A DNA stretch of 64,000 nt from an uncultured Candidatus Saccharibacteria bacterium (GCA_964562615.1 CAZLUD010000002.1:17907-81906); one strand, 5' to 3'. Numbered from the stretch's first letter, positions 8,664 to 15,070 are shown. A program made the numbers and translations. The notes: generated by a model not told the origin, from the letters alone.

Positions 8664-8921
8664 ATGAGCGACACAAGAGTCGTGGTTCAAAAAATTCTTG
8701 AAGATGTACAAAGGATAAGGAGAGAAAAAGTACCACACAAAACCTTGCCCAAAATAAGTTCAGGTATGAGAGTGAAAATTCAAATTGGGCATAGCAGTTT
8801 CATCGGAACTGCTGTAGCGGATAGCTATAGGGGATTTGTCTCTGTCAATTATATTGGTCCAGATGGATCGGAAGAAACTAGATCAATTAGTTTGCGATTG
8901 GCAACCCGCATACAAGAATAG
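8664..8921 (+). CDS. Hypothetical small protein
   Basis: GGAGG RBS 6 nt upstream of ATG 8664. No recognisable domain. It lies between murF and the tRNA. Confidence 0.35.
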   Translation: MSDTRVVVQKILEDVQRIRREKVPHKTLPKISSGMRVKIQIGHSSFIGTAVADSYRGFVSVNYIGPDGSEETRSISLRLATRIQE

Positions 8922-8948
8922 ATATCAAGTAATCAAAAGGTGGGTAAT

Positions 8949-8980
8949 GAAGGGGTCAATTCGTTGACCCCTTCATTTAT
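8949..8980 (+). terminator. Rho-independent terminator
   Basis: GAAGGGGTCAA-TTCG-TTGACCCCTTC hairpin followed by ATTTATT. Confidence 0.7.
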
Positions 8981-9008
8981 TGCATTTAAGGCCATTTTCC
9001 TCCATAAT
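8980..9008 (+). promoter_or_regulatory. Sigma70-like promoter for the tRNA
   Basis: TTGCAT -35, 17-nt spacer, CATAAT -10. The tRNA 5' end lies about 11 nt downstream. Confidence 0.6.
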
Positions 9009-9019
9009 CGTAACTACTT

Positions 9020-9091
9020 GGCCCTATCGTCTAACGGTTAGGACGGAGCCTTCTCAAGGCTTAAATCGGGGTTCGATTCCCCGTAGGGTCA
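9020..9091 (+). tRNA. tRNA-Glu (anticodon CUC), no encoded CCA
   Basis: Manual cloverleaf: acceptor GGCCCTA/TAGGGTC, D-arm GTCT/GGAC, anticodon stem GAGCC/GGCTT with loop TTCTCAA, T-arm CGGGG-TTCGATT-CCCCG. Confidence 0.8.
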
Positions 9092-9093
9092 CA

Positions 9094-9225
9094 AATCGGC
9101 CGACCGAATACGCGAATGCGTTTCGGTCGTTGCCGTTTGTAGGCACTACGGGGAATCGAACGACGGAGGCGGTATACAAGAACCGAAGCGAAGCGTAGGT
9201 TGCTTGTCGCCGAGTCGCGACCAGC
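9094..9225. repeat. 132-bp direct repeat unit A (copy 1). It contains a hairpin and an inverted 16-nt tRNA T-arm fragment
   Basis: Identical to 14325-14456. It contains ctacggggaatcgaac, the reverse complement of the tRNA T-arm. Confidence 0.9.
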
Positions 9226-9294
9226 GTGCTTAGCCAGAATGGCTTAGCAAAAGCGGGTCGATTCCCCGTAGGGTCACAAATCGAGACGAAGTCT

Positions 9295-9539
9295 CGTTTT
9301 GTGATGAAATACTAGCCTTTGCTCGAACCCATTTCGAGAAAAGACCATAACTACAACGCGTCGAGCGCGTGGTGGCTTTGTACTTCTGCGTACGCATTGG
9401 GGTGTGGCGCGCCTCGCCACTCGCTAATCGCTCGCCCCCAACCAATGAAATATCCTTACTTTTTGATTTTTCGGTGGAGGGGTCTGGGGAGGAGCCGACA
9501 AAAAATTGAAAGGATATTTCTTTGGTTTGGGGTCGCCGC
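9295..9539. repeat. Left arm (about 245 bp) of the terminal inverted repeat flanking the island cargo
   Basis: It is the reverse complement of 14082-14326. The outer tip cgttttgtga approximates the reverse complement of the core. Confidence 0.9.
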
Positions 9540-9574
9540 CATGAGTCTAGAAATAAGATTTTGTCCACGATCAA

Positions 9575-9598
9575 ACTATTATACTTTAATATAATAGT
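9575..9598 (+). promoter_or_regulatory. C-box-like palindromic operator upstream of the controller gene
   Basis: Perfect 9-bp inverted repeat ACTATTATA-n6-TATAATAGT, ending in AGTC like C.PvuII-type C-boxes. Tandem TATAAT boxes lie at 9603 and 9621. Confidence 0.55.
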
Positions 9599-9633
9599 CG
9601 TGTATAATGTAAGAGTTGGGTATAATTGTGGAG

Positions 9634-9837
9634 ATGAATGATTCCGCAAAGCTCGGCATGAATTTGAAAAAAATTCGCGAAGCGAAAAATATGTCTCAAG
9701 GTGACGTTATGCGCGTTATGGGTTGCAGTCGTAGTTATGTTAGCAACATCGAAAATGGAAAGACAAACCCCACCCTTGAGACAATTTCAAAACTAGCGAA
9801 GGTACTCGATGTAAGCACCATTGAGCTATTAAAATAG
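9634..9837 (+). CDS. XRE-family HTH regulator, candidate restriction-modification controller (C protein), probably leaderless
   Basis: HTH motif MSQGDVMRVMGCSRSYVSNIENGK. The ATG lies about 8 nt after the TATAAT at 9621-9626. The track used a TTG at 9616. Confidence 0.7.
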   Translation: MNDSAKLGMNLKKIREAKNMSQGDVMRVMGCSRSYVSNIENGKTNPTLETISKLAKVLDVSTIELLK

Positions 9838-9841
9838 AATT

Positions 9842-10798
9842 ATGACTACGCAACAAACAATCGCAAAACTCGCATATGAGTTAAAAATCAATAAAATCTA
9901 CGCGCGTCATGTTTTTCATAATGCAGACAAAACGAGATTATTTGAAGATGCGGCTCGAATTGTTAATGAGAAGCCAAAACCTTTCGTGAAATGGGTTGGA
10001 GGAAAAAGACAGTTGCTCCGCCAATTTCGTGATATGGGGTTATATCCACCTGATGATTTTGATCCTGTTACCAATACATACTTTGAGCCGTTTGTTGGCG
10101 GTGGAGCTGTCTTTTTCGATCTTCTGCCTCAGAAAGCAGAACTTTCTGATCTCAATACAGAACTTGTGACAACATACAACGTCATTAAAAATGACGTTGA
10201 TGCACTAATTAATTCACTCAAAAAACACAAGTACGAAAAAGAGTACTATCTAGAATTGCGTGCAAAAGATCCCAAAGAACTATCAGATATAAATGTTGCT
10301 TCTCGGTTCATTTTTCTTAATCGCACTTGCTTCAATGGCATGTATAGGGTCAATAGCAAAGGTGAATTCAATGTTCCGTTTGGGAAATATACAAACCCTA
10401 TAATTTGTGACGGAGATAATTTGTTTAAAGTATCGAAATCACTAAAAAAAGTAACTATCAAAAATCAAGACTATAAAAAAGTTTTGGATAAAGCAAAAAA
10501 AGGAGATTTTGTATATTTCGATCCACCTTATTATCCAGTAAGTAAAACTGCTTCCTTCACTTCATATACAGCAGATGCTTTTTTAGAAAAAGAACAGACA
10601 GAGTTGAGAGATACATTCGTAGAATTACATAAACGTGGTTGTTTTGTCATGCTTTCTAACTCCGATACTTCAGTTATCAACGAACTATACTCGAATATTA
10701 AGGATATCAAAGTATCAAAAGTTGCTGCAAGCCGTGCCATAAACTCAAATGCTTCAAAGCGAGGAAAGATAAGTGAAGTTTTAGTAACTAACTATTAA
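9842..10798 (+). CDS. Dam-family (D12 class, alpha) N6-adenine DNA methyltransferase with a 55-aa N-terminal extension
   Basis: Motifs KWVGGKRQLL, FEPFVGGGAVFF (motif I) and FDPPY (motif IV). Confidence 0.85.
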   Translation: MTTQQTIAKLAYELKINKIYARHVFHNADKTRLFEDAARIVNEKPKPFVKWVGGKRQLLRQFRDMGLYPPDDFDPVTNTYFEPFVGGGAVFFDLLPQKAELSDLNTELVTTYNVIKNDVDALINSLKKHKYEKEYYLELRAKDPKELSDINVASRFIFLNRTCFNGMYRVNSKGEFNVPFGKYTNPIICDGDNLFKVSKSLKKVTIKNQDYKKVLDKAKKGDFVYFDPPYYPVSKTASFTSYTADAFLEKEQTELRDTFVELHKRGCFVMLSNSDTSVINELYSNIKDIKVSKVAASRAINSNASKRGKISEVLVTNY

Positions 10799-10801
10799 AT
10801 T

Positions 10802-11329
10802 ATGATTAAGGGTGGCGTTGGAGGAGGAAATACAAAAACAGGATTACACTTTGAAGGTCGAATTAATATTGTCGATCTACTAAATAGCCAGCCTGGCTAC
10901 AAAGTGACGAAAGATGTTGTCTACTTTGAGGGTTCAGAAGTCGCAATCTGCCTTGCAAAACATAAATTGTATAAATGGCTTGAAACTCAAAACATAGACT
11001 ACAAAAAGTACATATCAAAAAAGTTGCTACCCGATGAGGCGTTGTATGTAATTGTAGACAACACTTTGTATGTCATTGAAATGAAGTTTCAGGAGACTCC
11101 TGGGTCAGTTGATGAAAAATTACAAACGTGTGATTTTAAGCGTAAGCAATACTCAAAATTGATGGCTCCACTAAACATTGAAGTTGAGTACATGTATGTA
11201 CTAAGTGAGTGGTTTCGTAAAGATGAATACAAAGACGTACTTGACTATATTATTTCAGTTGGATGTCAGTACTATTTTGAATATATACCATTACAGAAAC
11301 TCGGCTTACCTGTACCGAAAATACAATAA
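10802..11329 (+). CDS. Small PD-(D/E)xK nuclease, candidate type II restriction endonuclease
   Basis: 175 aa with LLPDE...VDNTLYVIEMK, giving PD-x14-ExK. It sits between two MTase genes. Confidence 0.5.
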   Translation: MIKGGVGGGNTKTGLHFEGRINIVDLLNSQPGYKVTKDVVYFEGSEVAICLAKHKLYKWLETQNIDYKKYISKKLLPDEALYVIVDNTLYVIEMKFQETPGSVDEKLQTCDFKRKQYSKLMAPLNIEVEYMYVLSEWFRKDEYKDVLDYIISVGCQYYFEYIPLQKLGLPVPKIQ

Positions 11330-11335
11330 TTATTC

Positions 11336-12088
11336 ATGGCTAAGGAAATGAAACTACACCCTGAAGAATTCGACCTTGAATGCACAACGGTGTGGGCATT
11401 TCCACGGCGTGGTAACTGGGCAACCCACAAATCAGACTGGCGTGGTAACTGGGCACCAGAAGTCGCCCGCAATCTAATCCTTCGATACTCTAACGAGGGT
11501 GACATTCTGCTAGATCCAATGATTGGCGGCGGTACTACTGCGATTGAAGCAAAGATACTCAATAGAAATATCATATGTTCAGACGTAAATGATATTGCAC
11601 TAGAACGAACAATGGAAAGTCTAAAATTTCCAGTTGAAAACAAATCGTGGCAAAAGATTGTTAAGAGGGATGCACGTGACCTCAGCAAGGCTGAAAATGA
11701 AAGTATTGATTTTATTCTCACTCACCCACCGTATGCTGATATTATCAAATATAGTGAGGGAGAAATTGATGAAGATCTTTCAAATATCCACGCGATAGAC
11801 GAGTTTGCGGACGAAATGGAAAAAGTCGCTAGTGAATTGTATAGAGTCCTTAAGCCTGGTAAATTTTGCGCAATTTTGATCGGTGATACTCGACGTCAAA
11901 AAATGTATCAACCTCTCGCATATCGAGTTATGGATCGCTTTTTGAATGTAGGTTTCGATCTCAAAGAAGACATCATAAAAAGACAATACAACTGTAAGGC
12001 AACGGGTTTTTGGGTAAATAAATCAAAAGAAAATAATTTCTTACTAATAATGCACGAACATTTGTTTGTATTTCAAAAAGCAAATTAA
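11336..12088 (+). CDS. Amino (N6A/N4C) DNA methyltransferase with motif order X-I then IV
   Basis: TVWAFPRRGNWATH...GDILLDPMIGGGTTAIEA (motif X/I) followed by ILTHPPYADI (motif IV). Confidence 0.75.
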   Translation: MAKEMKLHPEEFDLECTTVWAFPRRGNWATHKSDWRGNWAPEVARNLILRYSNEGDILLDPMIGGGTTAIEAKILNRNIICSDVNDIALERTMESLKFPVENKSWQKIVKRDARDLSKAENESIDFILTHPPYADIIKYSEGEIDEDLSNIHAIDEFADEMEKVASELYRVLKPGKFCAILIGDTRRQKMYQPLAYRVMDRFLNVGFDLKEDIIKRQYNCKATGFWVNKSKENNFLLIMHEHLFVFQKAN

Positions 12089-13874
12089 CGATATGTCTTA
12101 CAAAATTTTAAAAATTTCCATAAACAACTATCGGTCTATCAAAAGAATCACATTGACCACACCCGAATTCGGAAATCCTACAATTATATGTGGCGCAAAC
12201 AACGTAGGAAAAACAAATTTTTTACGAGCAATAGATTTATTTTTTAATGAAGTAAATTTCAAAGCATCAAACGACATTCCCTATGAAATAGTCGAAGCAA
12301 CGCGAGGAGCTGGCTATAAGACCACCATAAGTATTGATTTCATCGATACTGCTACAAAGGAAAAGGTTGTTATAAAGAAAGTATTCCGAGAACAATCTGG
12401 GGAAAATGTAGTTGAGAGAACTGGATATAAAAAGCCGTATCGAAGTAACCGTAATAATATTTATGATACTGAGATTAGAAAATTTCTTGATAATTTCCGT
12501 TTTCTTTTCGTCGAAGCTAGTAATGTAGACATCCCTGCACTTGTTGCACAAATCACAAAAAATAATGTACTTTCTGGACTCGACAAATTACGCAAGAAAC
12601 AAACTAAACCGTTGGATATTTTGAAAAAATTTATTTCGGAATCCGAAAAATCACTACAAAATATCGAGACGAATATCACAAAAAATTTTCAAGACTTTGC
12701 ACATGGGATTGGCACTTACACTGAAGGCTTAGATGCAAAAGACTGGCAGATTAAATTCATTTTTCCTGAGTATGAATTCTTAAGAGAAGCTGTTGGTAAT
12801 ATGGTTAACTTAGTGATGCAGGACAGCAACCAAAAAGAGCTCGAAGCTAAAGGTAGTGGTATTCAAAGAATACTCTTACTCTCTCTAATAAAGTATATCT
12901 CTGAGAACACAAAGAAAACTGTAATTTGGGGTATTGATGAACCAGAGGCTTTTCTTCAGCCAGGACTTCAGAAAAAAGTTTTTGCCATAATAAAGGAGAT
13001 GTCACGAAACCTTGAGATATTCATAACGACACACTCACATCACTTTGTGGATATTGGGTACCTAGAGCCAGTGCATCTATTTAATGCTAAATATACTCAA
13101 CAAGCATACTCAAGAAAGAAGAACAAAGAATATCTGAAGATAAGCACTGAAGTAGATAAGGTTACAGGATACAACAAGGTACAAAAAATAAGAGAACATC
13201 TCGGAGTAGCAACAAACGACAGTTGGGAGATTCTGCCCTACAACTTAATTGTTGAAGGCAACGAGGACAAATTATATTTGCTTAAGCTTTTAGAAATTAA
13301 CGGACTCGATCAGCCGAAAATACTTACAGCTGACGGAGCGGATAAAGTTCCCGGATATCTAGTCTTTGTTAATATGTTTTGCCAAGAACAAAAAATAAAA
13401 CCGAAAATACGAACAATATTAGATCATGACGCAAAAGGAAAACAGGTCTCAAGCAGCCTTAAATCAAAGAACTATTCATTTGATCATAAGTTAGAATTTA
13501 TTGAAAGATTCGATGGTAAAAGTAACGCAACTTGGGAATATGACGTTGAAGATTTAATTTATCCTGAAATATTAATTAAATCCGTTAATAAAATACTACA
13601 AAAAAGAAATTATTCGATACTAAAAGTAAAAGAGACCGTCACAAAGAAGAATCAGCCGAGTTATCAGAAAGATTCAATTCTTTCATTCATTACAGCGCAG
13701 GTTAAAGAAGTTAACCAGGATAAAGAAGAGCTTGACTTTGAAAGTCCGTCACTCAAAATATTTCTTTGTACAACCACCTGTTCTCTACTTTCACAGACTA
13801 AGGACATAGCTAACTTGAACAAAAAATATCCTGAAATCCTGAAATATTTAAAACAGATATCTGTAGAATTTTGA
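12066..13874 (+). CDS. OLD-family ATP-dependent nuclease (ABC ATPase fused to TOPRIM); alternative start at 12093
   Basis: Walker A ICGANNVGKTN, signature GSGIQR, Walker B IDEPEAFL, H-loop TTHSHH. The C-terminal TOPRIM is LIVEGNEDK...ADGADK. Confidence 0.8.
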   Translation: MYFKKQINDMSYKILKISINNYRSIKRITLTTPEFGNPTIICGANNVGKTNFLRAIDLFFNEVNFKASNDIPYEIVEATRGAGYKTTISIDFIDTATKEKVVIKKVFREQSGENVVERTGYKKPYRSNRNNIYDTEIRKFLDNFRFLFVEASNVDIPALVAQITKNNVLSGLDKLRKKQTKPLDILKKFISESEKSLQNIETNITKNFQDFAHGIGTYTEGLDAKDWQIKFIFPEYEFLREAVGNMVNLVMQDSNQKELEAKGSGIQRILLLSLIKYISENTKKTVIWGIDEPEAFLQPGLQKKVFAIIKEMSRNLEIFITTHSHHFVDIGYLEPVHLFNAKYTQQAYSRKKNKEYLKISTEVDKVTGYNKVQKIREHLGVATNDSWEILPYNLIVEGNEDKLYLLKLLEINGLDQPKILTADGADKVPGYLVFVNMFCQEQKIKPKIRTILDHDAKGKQVSSSLKSKNYSFDHKLEFIERFDGKSNATWEYDVEDLIYPEILIKSVNKILQKRNYSILKVKETVTKKNQPSYQKDSILSFITAQVKEVNQDKEELDFESPSLKIFLCTTTCSLLSQTKDIANLNKKYPEILKYLKQISVEF

Positions 13875-14081
13875 CAAGCACACACGCAGCAACACCGAGC
13901 AGGCGGCGCGAGCGAATGCGAGCGTGCCTATGCGAGGTGCTTGCGTAGTGTGAGCGGACGCTAGCTTTACCACGCGCGCTGTATACGGGAAGCGCGCCTC
14001 GCTCGACGCGAGGACGGAAAAAAGCGTAGTGGTAGGCTCTCAAGTAGATGGAGACTATAATGGAGCTTTTTGGAGGACGAA

Positions 14082-14326
14082 GCGGCGACCCCAAACCAAA
14101 GAAATATCCTTTCAATTTTTTGTCGGCTCCTCCCCAGACCCCTCCACCGAAAAATCAAAAAGTAAGGATATTTCATTGGTTGGGGGCGAGCGATTAGCGA
14201 GTGGCGAGGCGCGCCACACCCCAATGCGTACGCAGAAGTACAAAGCCACCACGCGCTCGACGCGTTGTAGTTATGGTCTTTTCTCGAAATGGGTTCGAGC
14301 AAAGGCTAGTATTTCATCACAAATCG
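14082..14326. repeat. Right arm (about 245 bp) of the terminal inverted repeat
   Basis: It is the reverse complement of 9295-9539. It ends in the TCACAAATCG core, which abuts repeat unit A. Confidence 0.9.
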
Positions 14327-14456
14327 GCCGACCGAATACGCGAATGCGTTTCGGTCGTTGCCGTTTGTAGGCACTACGGGGAATCGAACGACGGAGGCGG
14401 TATACAAGAACCGAAGCGAAGCGTAGGTTGCTTGTCGCCGAGTCGCGACCTAATTT
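14325..14456. repeat. 132-bp direct repeat unit A (copy 2)
   Basis: Identical to 9094-9225. It is followed by a 52-bp insertion flanked by GCGACC, then the shared 58-bp segment. Confidence 0.9.
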
Positions 14457-14563
14457 TTACGACCAAAGGGAGATAAAAATGGAAGTACTCTTTGTGGTGC
14501 GACCAGCGTGCTTAGCCAGAATGGCTTAGCAAAAGCGGGTCGATTCCCCGTAGGGTCACACGA

Positions 14564-14598
14564 AATCCTGGTACTAATTTTTTATTAGTACCAGGATT
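14564..14598. repeat. Perfect 15-bp palindrome with a T5 loop at the island/chromosome junction
   Basis: aatcctggtactaat-ttttt-attagtaccaggatt, immediately after the last tRNA 3' copy. Confidence 0.8.
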
Positions 14599-14691
14599 GC
14601 GCTTGTGATGCCTGGGAGGCAGAATCGAAAGCCGCAGCAAAGCGAGGCAGGGCAGGAGCCACTTAGGTTTCTGGGAGATATTGCTATTTAT

Positions 14692-14844
14692 CTATTTGAG
14701 TGGATTTTCACCGCGGATTACACGAATAAGTACTACAATAATAGCAATAACTAATAACACGTGAACGAATCCACCAACGGTATATGAGGTAACCATACCA
14801 AGAAGCCAAAGCACAACAAGAACAGCGGCGATAGTAGTAAGCAT
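14692..14844 (-). CDS. Small membrane protein, lmo0937-like family (50 aa). Absent from the ORF track because it is under 60 aa
   Basis: MLTTIAAVLVVLWLLGMVTSYTVGGFVHVLLVIAIIVVLIRVIRGENPLK matches the conserved LWLLG...GGxxHxLLVIAxIVxLIR pattern. Confidence 0.55.
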   Translation of the reverse strand: MLTTIAAVLVVLWLLGMVTSYTVGGFVHVLLVIAIIVVLIRVIRGENPLK

Positions 14845-15070
14845 AGGAGTGAGTTTTAAAAAGAATCAAATAATATTCGACTCATCGCTCACTGTGAGGC
14901 GATATAGTTATATTGTCTCACCTCACACAAAGAGCACAAGGGTGTGTCATAAGAACTCTCTGAGAACTACTAATCATCAATTTTAGAAATAAGAGCCGTG
15001 ATTTCTTTCAAGCAGACAATAAATCACAACTAATGCCACAATAACCACGTTAATTTGTGGTGATATACTC

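Follow-up and report, generated by a model that had tools for sequence, protein, structure and literature searches.

The gene under study lies on the + strand at 12093-13874 of a 64,000-nucleotide (nt) stretch of DNA from an uncultured Candidatus Saccharibacteria bacterium (GCA_964562615.1 CAZLUD010000002.1:17907-81906; the whole stretch is referred to below as the window), where it encodes an intact, single-polypeptide protein of the OLD family in which an ABC ATPase is followed by a TOPRIM domain. It is the last of five tightly packed genes, the first four of which make up a restriction-modification (RM) cassette of probable GATC type. The reading that we favour, and to which we would grant an even chance, is that this intact OLD nuclease serves as an autonomous second-line effector, co-expressed and co-transferred with the restriction system. 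Since the embedding of such genes in RM operons recurs among relatives from many phyla, mere chance adjacency is unlikely, and the gene probably adds an integral second tier of defence against phages as opposed to being a chance neighbour.

The + strand is open throughout 12066-13874 in the list of open reading frames (ORFs) of the window, the longest ORF beginning at TTG 12066 and the stop codon occupying 13872-13874. Because the aligned close homologues, including five at 61-73% identity, all begin at the methionine of MSYKI, TTG 12066 was rejected as the start and ATG 12093 was preferred; the latter is almost certainly the genuine initiation codon and gives a protein of 593 aa. An initial annotation, confirmed in part by the present analysis, had described a 602-aa protein whose start overlapped the stop codon of the upstream methylase gene: the single intact ORF and the tight coupling stand, while the length and the overlap do not, as the methylase stop codon (12086-12088) precedes ATG 12093 by 4 nt. 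Membership of the OLD family was borne out by Pfam matches to AAA_15 (2.8e-25), AAA_21, SMC_N and AAA_23 and by matches to the PADLOC models Old, GajA and AriA; a scan of the protein against NCBIfam yielded zero models at cut-off.

The N-terminal OLD-type ABC ATPase domain covers approximately residues 1-365 (12093-13187; AAA_15/AAA_21/SMC_N) and produced profile matches to the ATPase domains of GajA and of TsOLD, the OLD protein of Thermus scotoductus, as well as Foldseek matches to OLD, GajA and the heads of Rad50 and SMC. The full set of ABC motifs claimed for it was recovered, i.e. Walker A (GANNVGKT with K40; 12192-12215), the signature-like motif KGSGIQR (with Q258; 12849-12869), Walker B plus D-loop (IDEPEAFLQ with D282 and E283; 12933-12959, of which IDEPE occupies 12933-12947) and the H-loop TTHS (with H314; 13026-13037), and residues K40, Q258, D282, E283 and H314 do not vary in any of three alignments, of 33, 98 and 45 homologues, the last being the full-length homologues to which all residue-conservation counts below refer. 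An AlphaFold2 model of the full-length protein, with a predicted local distance difference test score (pLDDT) of 85.3, places a helical insertion, modelled at low confidence (pLDDT 45-70), at residues 147-235 (12531-12797), the position of the dimerisation domain described for TsOLD (PMC10568477).

When this model was compared with PDB structures using Foldseek, 6p74 (Thermus scotoductus OLD, 1.4e-18), GajA and retron Eco8 ranked above the Rad50 and SMC heads. The modelled TOPRIM core comprises residues 380-490 (13230-13562) in the order beta1-alpha1-beta2-alpha2-beta3-alpha3-beta4. Its first motif, VEGNEDK, carries E388 (metal A) and D392 (metal B) at 13254-13268, and the DxD motif D444-H-D446 (metal A; 13422-13430) stands at the end of beta3; all four of these catalytic residues are invariant (45/45), and none is missing on alignment. 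A second acidic cluster, D484-V-E486-D487 (metal B; 13542-13553), has invariant E486 and D487, position 484 being E in 41/45 homologues and D in the window protein. The metal ligands of TsOLD were defined by mutation as E377, D431 and D433 for metal A and D381, S478 and E480 for metal B (PMC7049728). Judged by motif order and spacing, E388/D392 would correspond to TsOLD E377/D381, D444/D446 would be the counterparts of D431/D433, and D484-x-E486 would match S478-x-E480 of TsOLD and D541-x-E543 of P2 Old; the order and spacing of the acidic residues are the same as those of the residues that ligate metals A and B in both proteins. The two TOPRIM motifs named in the initial annotation, EG..D and DGADK, fared differently. 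The first is the VEGNEDK motif, whereas DGADK (13332-13346) was rejected as the DxD since its Asp positions are poorly conserved among the homologues (D414 is replaced by Gly in 30/45 and D417 is Asp in only 19/45; K418 alone is well kept, in 38/45) while D444-x-D446 is unvarying.

The TOPRIM core is followed by a C-terminal helical bundle (residues 491-593; 13563-13871), modelled at 491-589 with a pLDDT >90 and bearing an invariant lysine, K555 (13755-13757), which by motif order is the likely counterpart of K562 of BpOLD, a Class 2 enzyme. The protein combines a TOPRIM fold containing a conserved Glu and a DxD with acidic residues for metal B (D392, D484-x-E486) and a basic one (K555), mapped by motif order, which would complete a two-metal site. 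The C-terminal region aligns over 159 residues with Class 2 as against 120 with TsOLD, a Class 1 protein with a shorter C-terminus that lacks the helical domain (PMC7049728).

Assignment to one of the OLD classes was approached through both context and structure. Neither a helicase, a reverse transcriptase (RT) nor a separate TOPRIM gene was found among the ORFs of the genomic island on which the gene lies, and ORF and domain scans of the island revealed no GajB/UvrD-like helicase 3' of the gene, the DNA there being non-coding and repeat-bearing. The statement that no such helicase is present and that the island ends just after the gene was upheld, the low-GC DNA stopping ~200 nt downstream. 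Gabija and Class 2 were ruled out by the lack of an adjoining GajB and of the TOPRIM Insert 3 helix, as in the model no helix separates alpha3 (447-456) from beta4 (464-469). A Class 3 retron effector was likewise excluded: no RT domain occurs in the island ORFs, Rfam over 8900-15000 detects tRNA-Glu only and no msr/msd non-coding RNA, and the protein reaches 35 bits with the NCBIfam model retron_eff_Eco8, for which the cut-off is 250. PARIS (Class 4) was eliminated because ATPase and TOPRIM reside in one 593-aa ORF and not in separate genes. By contextual definition, i.e. without helicase, without RT and unsplit, the protein is Class 1. Class 1 genes are, however, described as isolated, with no other defence genes close by (PMC10568477), and two published traits of the class, this isolation and a short C-terminus without a helical domain, are not seen here. 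The earlier suggestion that this may be a Class 1 protein acting alone or coupled to the RM system is supported in part: no partner gene was found and RM linkage is recurrent, but these two traits depart from Class 1. The clade blurs the boundary between Class 1 and Class 2, as it is devoid of a helicase yet possesses a Class 2-like C-terminal domain with a predicted catalytic lysine. A recent phylogeny lists eleven uncharacterised OLD clades, U1-U11 (PMC12796447), and the present clade may be one of these.

The cassette upstream consists of a controller (C) protein with a helix-turn-helix (HTH) fold (9634-9837; PADLOC Control_protein 2e-12, with HTH families matched on an identical Logan contig), a Dam-class N6-adenine methylase closely homologous to DpnM (M1.DpnII), its best match of known structure (9842-10798; MethyltransfD12 2.8e-61, TIGR00571 3e-87, PDB 2dpm 2.8e-72), with probable GATC specificity, a 175-aa putative endonuclease (10802-11329) and, directly upstream of the OLD gene, a second methylase of the N6_N4 class (11336-12088; N6_N4_Mtase 1.2e-25, PADLOC MTase_II 5e-89). 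The 175-aa protein, for which no PDB or NCBIfam match was obtained, is a candidate PD-(D/E)XK-like enzyme by virtue of a D..EMK motif, a sub-threshold match (PDDEXK_11, E=0.0013) and its position between the methylases; with Dam-class and N6_N4 methylases both found and the endonuclease assigned in this way, the cassette is a candidate DpnII/MboI-type system. All five genes are co-directional on the + strand, with intergenic gaps of 4, 3, 6 and 4 nt. Inspection by eye revealed no evident Shine-Dalgarno sequence before genes 2-5, a terminator scan found no + strand terminator inside either of the last two genes or in the gap that separates them, and no obvious promoter is present in the 4-nt gap; this arrangement is consistent with co-transcription of the OLD gene with the RM genes. 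Within the second methylase gene, an exact 17-nt duplication 33 nt apart (GGCGTGGTAACTGGGCA; 11406-11455) encodes a repeated RGNWA peptide.

To place this linkage in a wider context, a genome sample comprising one genome per species was examined, which returned 54 loci (53 distinct) in which ORFs were called and neighbours clustered, Pfam annotation being applied to cluster representatives and key singletons; exact-protein look-ups supplied seven more contexts. An RM gene lies on the same strand <=25 nt away in 17/53 loci and within three genes in 4 more, and ~40% of the relatives lie in RM operons. The first of the two commonest contexts is composed of Dam-class and N6_N4 methylases with a DpnII, MutH, BglII or DUF6996/6997 endonuclease or the 175-aa protein; in these Dam/DpnII-type cassettes the OLD gene usually comes last, either overlapping the preceding gene by 4 nt or a short distance behind it, and sometimes sits between RM genes (locus L016). 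The second is the type I operon in the order hsdM-hsdS-OLD-hsdR (L023, L025, L030), while other RM partners include a C5 methylase (L029) and a type IIG enzyme (L056). The nearest relatives (65-74% identity) come after an N6_N4 methylase and a MutH-family endonuclease, an RM system that differs from that of the window. ORFs with an amino-methylase motif number 20/242 within three genes of the OLD gene versus 3/322 at a distance of >=5 genes (p=1.3e-5), and the median upstream gap is 4 nt if the neighbour is an RM gene and 147 nt otherwise (p=1.7e-7). On a neighbour-joining tree, GATC-type contexts are spread over at least eight lineages and type I contexts group together. A metagenome scan, independent of the genome sample and annotated with a small reference set of our own such that its RM fractions are lower bounds, placed an RM gene within two genes in at least 17 of the 40 informative loci and directly adjacent in at least 15, again with hsdS-OLD-hsdR and Dam-DpnII-OLD-methylase orders. 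The remaining members are found beside housekeeping genes, integrases, an integrative and conjugative element (ICE), toxin-antitoxin (TA) modules or dnd genes, and since so many are located away from RM genes the OLD gene is not obligately tied to them.

A downstream GajB/UvrD-like helicase is absent in 52/53 of the related loci. The only helicase-like neighbour, which is not conserved, is a 913-aa SF1 gene (AAA_30, UvrD_C_2; L038:5461-8202) situated in a member of the Bacillales, 158 nt past a Dam-M-Mrr-DpnII-OLD array. Genes for Mrr-family modification-dependent endonucleases occur in two OLD-bearing DpnII-type cassettes (L009:5314-6213, L038:1825-2664), and these arrays pair a methylation-dependent with a methylation-sensitive nuclease. 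Distant homologues (~27-28% identity) were observed in type I-C cas operons immediately after cas8c-cas7-cas4 (L046:4417-9794, Kingella denitrificans; L053), and another, from a Clostridium botulinum-related genome, is convergent to a dndB-E phosphorothioation cluster (L063:7819-13770).

The family, of ~590 aa, is distributed over Patescibacteria, Bacillota, Bacteroidota, Pseudomonadota, Aquificota and archaea according to database searches, in which some members carry the names 'ATP-dependent nuclease' or 'predicted ATP-dependent endonuclease of OLD family', and its closest relatives come from Parcubacteria and other Patescibacteria. An exhaustive HMMER scan of 1.84 billion representative proteins yielded 308 at E<=1e-10 and no more than 82 at E<=1e-30, which marks the clade as compact. 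Phages are an unlikely source, as just 3 related loci were present in 2.9 million viral contigs and no methylase motif was detected among their neighbours. Homologues divided over two or three ORFs (L033, L036, L037 (=L118), L050, L052, L053, L096, L119), some of which adjoin type I RM genes, are probably pseudogenes or the result of sequencing frameshifts.

The model that we favour would operate as follows. An ABC ATPase with a dimerisation-type helical insert would share one chain with a two-metal TOPRIM nuclease, and a lysine from the C-terminal helical bundle would complete the nuclease active site. The OLD gene would close a single, tightly packed transcription unit of five genes (C protein, Dam/DpnM-like methylase, small endonuclease, second methylase, OLD), and its product would, without a helicase or RT partner, nick or degrade the DNA of an invading phage or plasmid under control of the ATPase. 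A mobile, strain-specific island at tRNA-Glu would thereby deliver two layers of defence, restriction and OLD. Both the nuclease activity and a DNA substrate are predicted, and the defence role is a presumptive one.

Several observations weigh against this model. More than half of the family members do not adjoin RM genes, six homologues look broken, and the RM linkage could mirror shared mobility in defence hotspots instead of joint function. For the window protein alone, Pfam/HMMER did not recognise the TOPRIM (OLD-like_TOPRIM, E=0.13) and the alignment from a PDB profile search covered the ATPase only and no TOPRIM; as the domain is unseen by sequence alone, the nuclease assignment hangs on the predicted structure, together with weak family-level Pfam matches across 20 members (OLD-like_TOPRIM in 11/20, Toprim_2 in 9/20, DUF3226 in 16/20). 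AriB of PARIS cleaves tRNA and, by analogy, the substrate could be RNA or tRNA instead of DNA. Finally, the TOPRIM of Escherichia coli YbjD is reported as dispensable (PMC13261556).

The alternative that survives best, possible albeit unlikely in our estimation, is that the protein guards the RM system in the manner of PrrC or PARIS, remaining latent while restriction works and aborting infection through DNA or tRNA cutting once a phage neutralises or evades restriction by means of anti-restriction proteins, DNA mimics or self-methylation of GATC. The recurrent location within RM operons would accommodate such a role, which is known from PrrC in EcoprrI and from PARIS; masking by a restriction complex has been demonstrated for PrrC only. 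The finding that about half of the family is without RM neighbours indicates that an RM system is no obligate partner, and the linked RM subunits are unrelated (type I; DpnII, MutH, BglII and other folds), which argues against one specific protein contact. In an extension of this proposal, which we advance tentatively and by analogy, the clade might represent a distinct RM-dedicated OLD class, a fused analogue of PARIS, RloAB and PrrC that guards restriction within type I (hsdS-hsdR) and GATC cassettes. Were the guard model true, common type II GATC systems would come under the PrrC/PARIS principle as well.

It is more doubtful that the protein processes restriction fragments, as an exonuclease or nickase that degrades GATC-cut DNA, blocks its repair or recombination and takes the place of RecBCD in a host with a small genome. 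For P2 Old and TsOLD, 5'-3' exonuclease activity on linear DNA has been reported (PMC10568477), the strongest type II link is with GATC-type systems regardless of the endonuclease fold (DpnII, MutH, BglII, DUF6997 or the 175-aa protein), and the nearest relatives are patescibacterial. Yet VcOLD only nicks plasmid DNA, independently of RecBCD, type I enzymes, which cut at random distant sites, are also linked, and the model presupposes a host without RecBCD/AddAB.

We likewise see little chance that OLD and RM are independent systems which happened to gather in one integration hotspot. The site is indeed variable, a 98%-identical strain having a cassette with an EcoRI-like methylase there and a related species other genes, and further family members are near TA, dnd, CRISPR-cas or ICE genes. 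The 4-nt spacing without a terminator or obvious promoter, the same-strand RM adjacency (<=25 nt) found in both samples and in no fewer than eight tree lineages, and the insertion of OLD between RM genes at several loci all speak against such independence. A non-defence or nuclease-independent role, whether in housekeeping or the cell cycle as reported for the archaeal OLD ATPase Cran1 (PMC12796447) or as ATPase-only toxicity in the manner of YbjD, for which dispensability of the TOPRIM would speak, is very improbable for a gene on a strain-specific low-GC mobile island whose family has a patchy cross-phylum distribution and invariant nuclease residues throughout.

The strain-variable island (9097-14686), delimited by composition, tRNA and synteny breaks, is located between tRNA-Glu (9020-9092) and a conserved DUF5670 gene. 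Its low-GC cargo (9540-14081; ~33-39% G+C versus roughly 45% in the flanks), with OLD at the 3' end, is enclosed by a perfect 245-nt inverted repeat (left arm 9295-9539, right arm 14082-14326), outside which are perfect direct repeats (9089-9222 = 14317-14450; 9217-9278 = 14499-14560) holding tRNA-Glu 3'-end fragments in both orientations, and a short core, TCACAAATCG, recurs at the repeat junctions. No integrase is encoded on the island, and Rfam, promoter and terminator scans returned only tRNA-Glu and no internal + strand terminator. The repeat arrangement could reflect att-site recombination, inversion or ambiguous short-read assembly; a fold-back assembly artefact was ruled out as the source of the inverted repeat, as the DNA beyond the right arm is a direct and not an inverted copy of the left flank. 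A Logan unitig spans exactly 9510-14111; since this unitig, built from short reads, stops within the repeat, the cargo may lie in either orientation. The segment between the OLD stop codon and the repeat arm (13880-14080) is G+C-rich and non-coding, with GCGAGCG-like repeats, a composition unlike that of island and host and no match in Rfam. The 98%-identical strain departs exactly at the tRNA-Glu 3' end, an 80%-identical species has five unannotated genes and two ~330-nt direct repeats at the same site (compared hotspot loci L066:2354-4190 and L069:3050-6648), and synteny with relatives picks up again at ~14687. These breaks in synteny relative to both strain and species mark the OLD gene as cargo of a strain-variable hotspot.

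Partner-less OLD nucleases have been described in reviews as isolated genes, and the repeated presence of this clade within RM operons of unrelated types makes the five-gene cassette a small setting for asking whether OLD works independently, in cooperation with restriction or as its guard. That ABC-TOPRIM modules occur within modification-based defence loci is a theme already published; in the literature searched, neither this fused clade nor its systematic association with Dam/DpnII-type and type I operons was described. Among the closest known systems, the Class 1 proteins (P2 Old, TsOLD 6P74 and VcOLD) resemble the window protein in that they combine ABC ATPase and TOPRIM in a single polypeptide without a helicase or RT partner and share with it the succession and spacing of residues for metal A (E, DxD) and for metal B (D/E, [D/S/E]-x-E), TsOLD being both the top full-length Foldseek match (1.4e-18) and the top single-sequence PDB match. 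In contrast to them, the window protein is only ~18% identical in structural alignment and its clade is set in RM operons, Class 1 genes being described as isolated; TsOLD also lacks the C-terminal bundle lysine and uses R487, 7 residues past the metal B Glu. The window protein differs from Class 2 and GajA (BpOLD 6NK8, BcGajA 8SM3) in having neither GajB nor a modelled Insert 3 helix.

PARIS, in which the ABC ATPase AriA senses an anti-restriction protein and the TOPRIM resides in AriB, and RloAB of Campylobacter, a split ABC and TOPRIM pair reported inside a type I locus, are each encoded by two genes, unlike the fusion described here. PrrC, the gene for which lies in the hsdS-hsdR interval of the prr locus (EcoprrI, type IC), is comparable to some OLD relatives as an NTPase-nuclease gene embedded at that position in a type I operon, although its nuclease domain is unrelated and the window copy belongs to a type II (GATC) cassette. 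For BREX and BREX-related loci, too, a backup effector role of OLD-ABC/TOPRIM modules has been proposed (PMC12839542); the partners there are BREX/BR systems and here Dam/DpnII-type (type II) and type I RM systems, but in both instances OLD-type ATPase-TOPRIM genes have been taken into modification-based defence operons.

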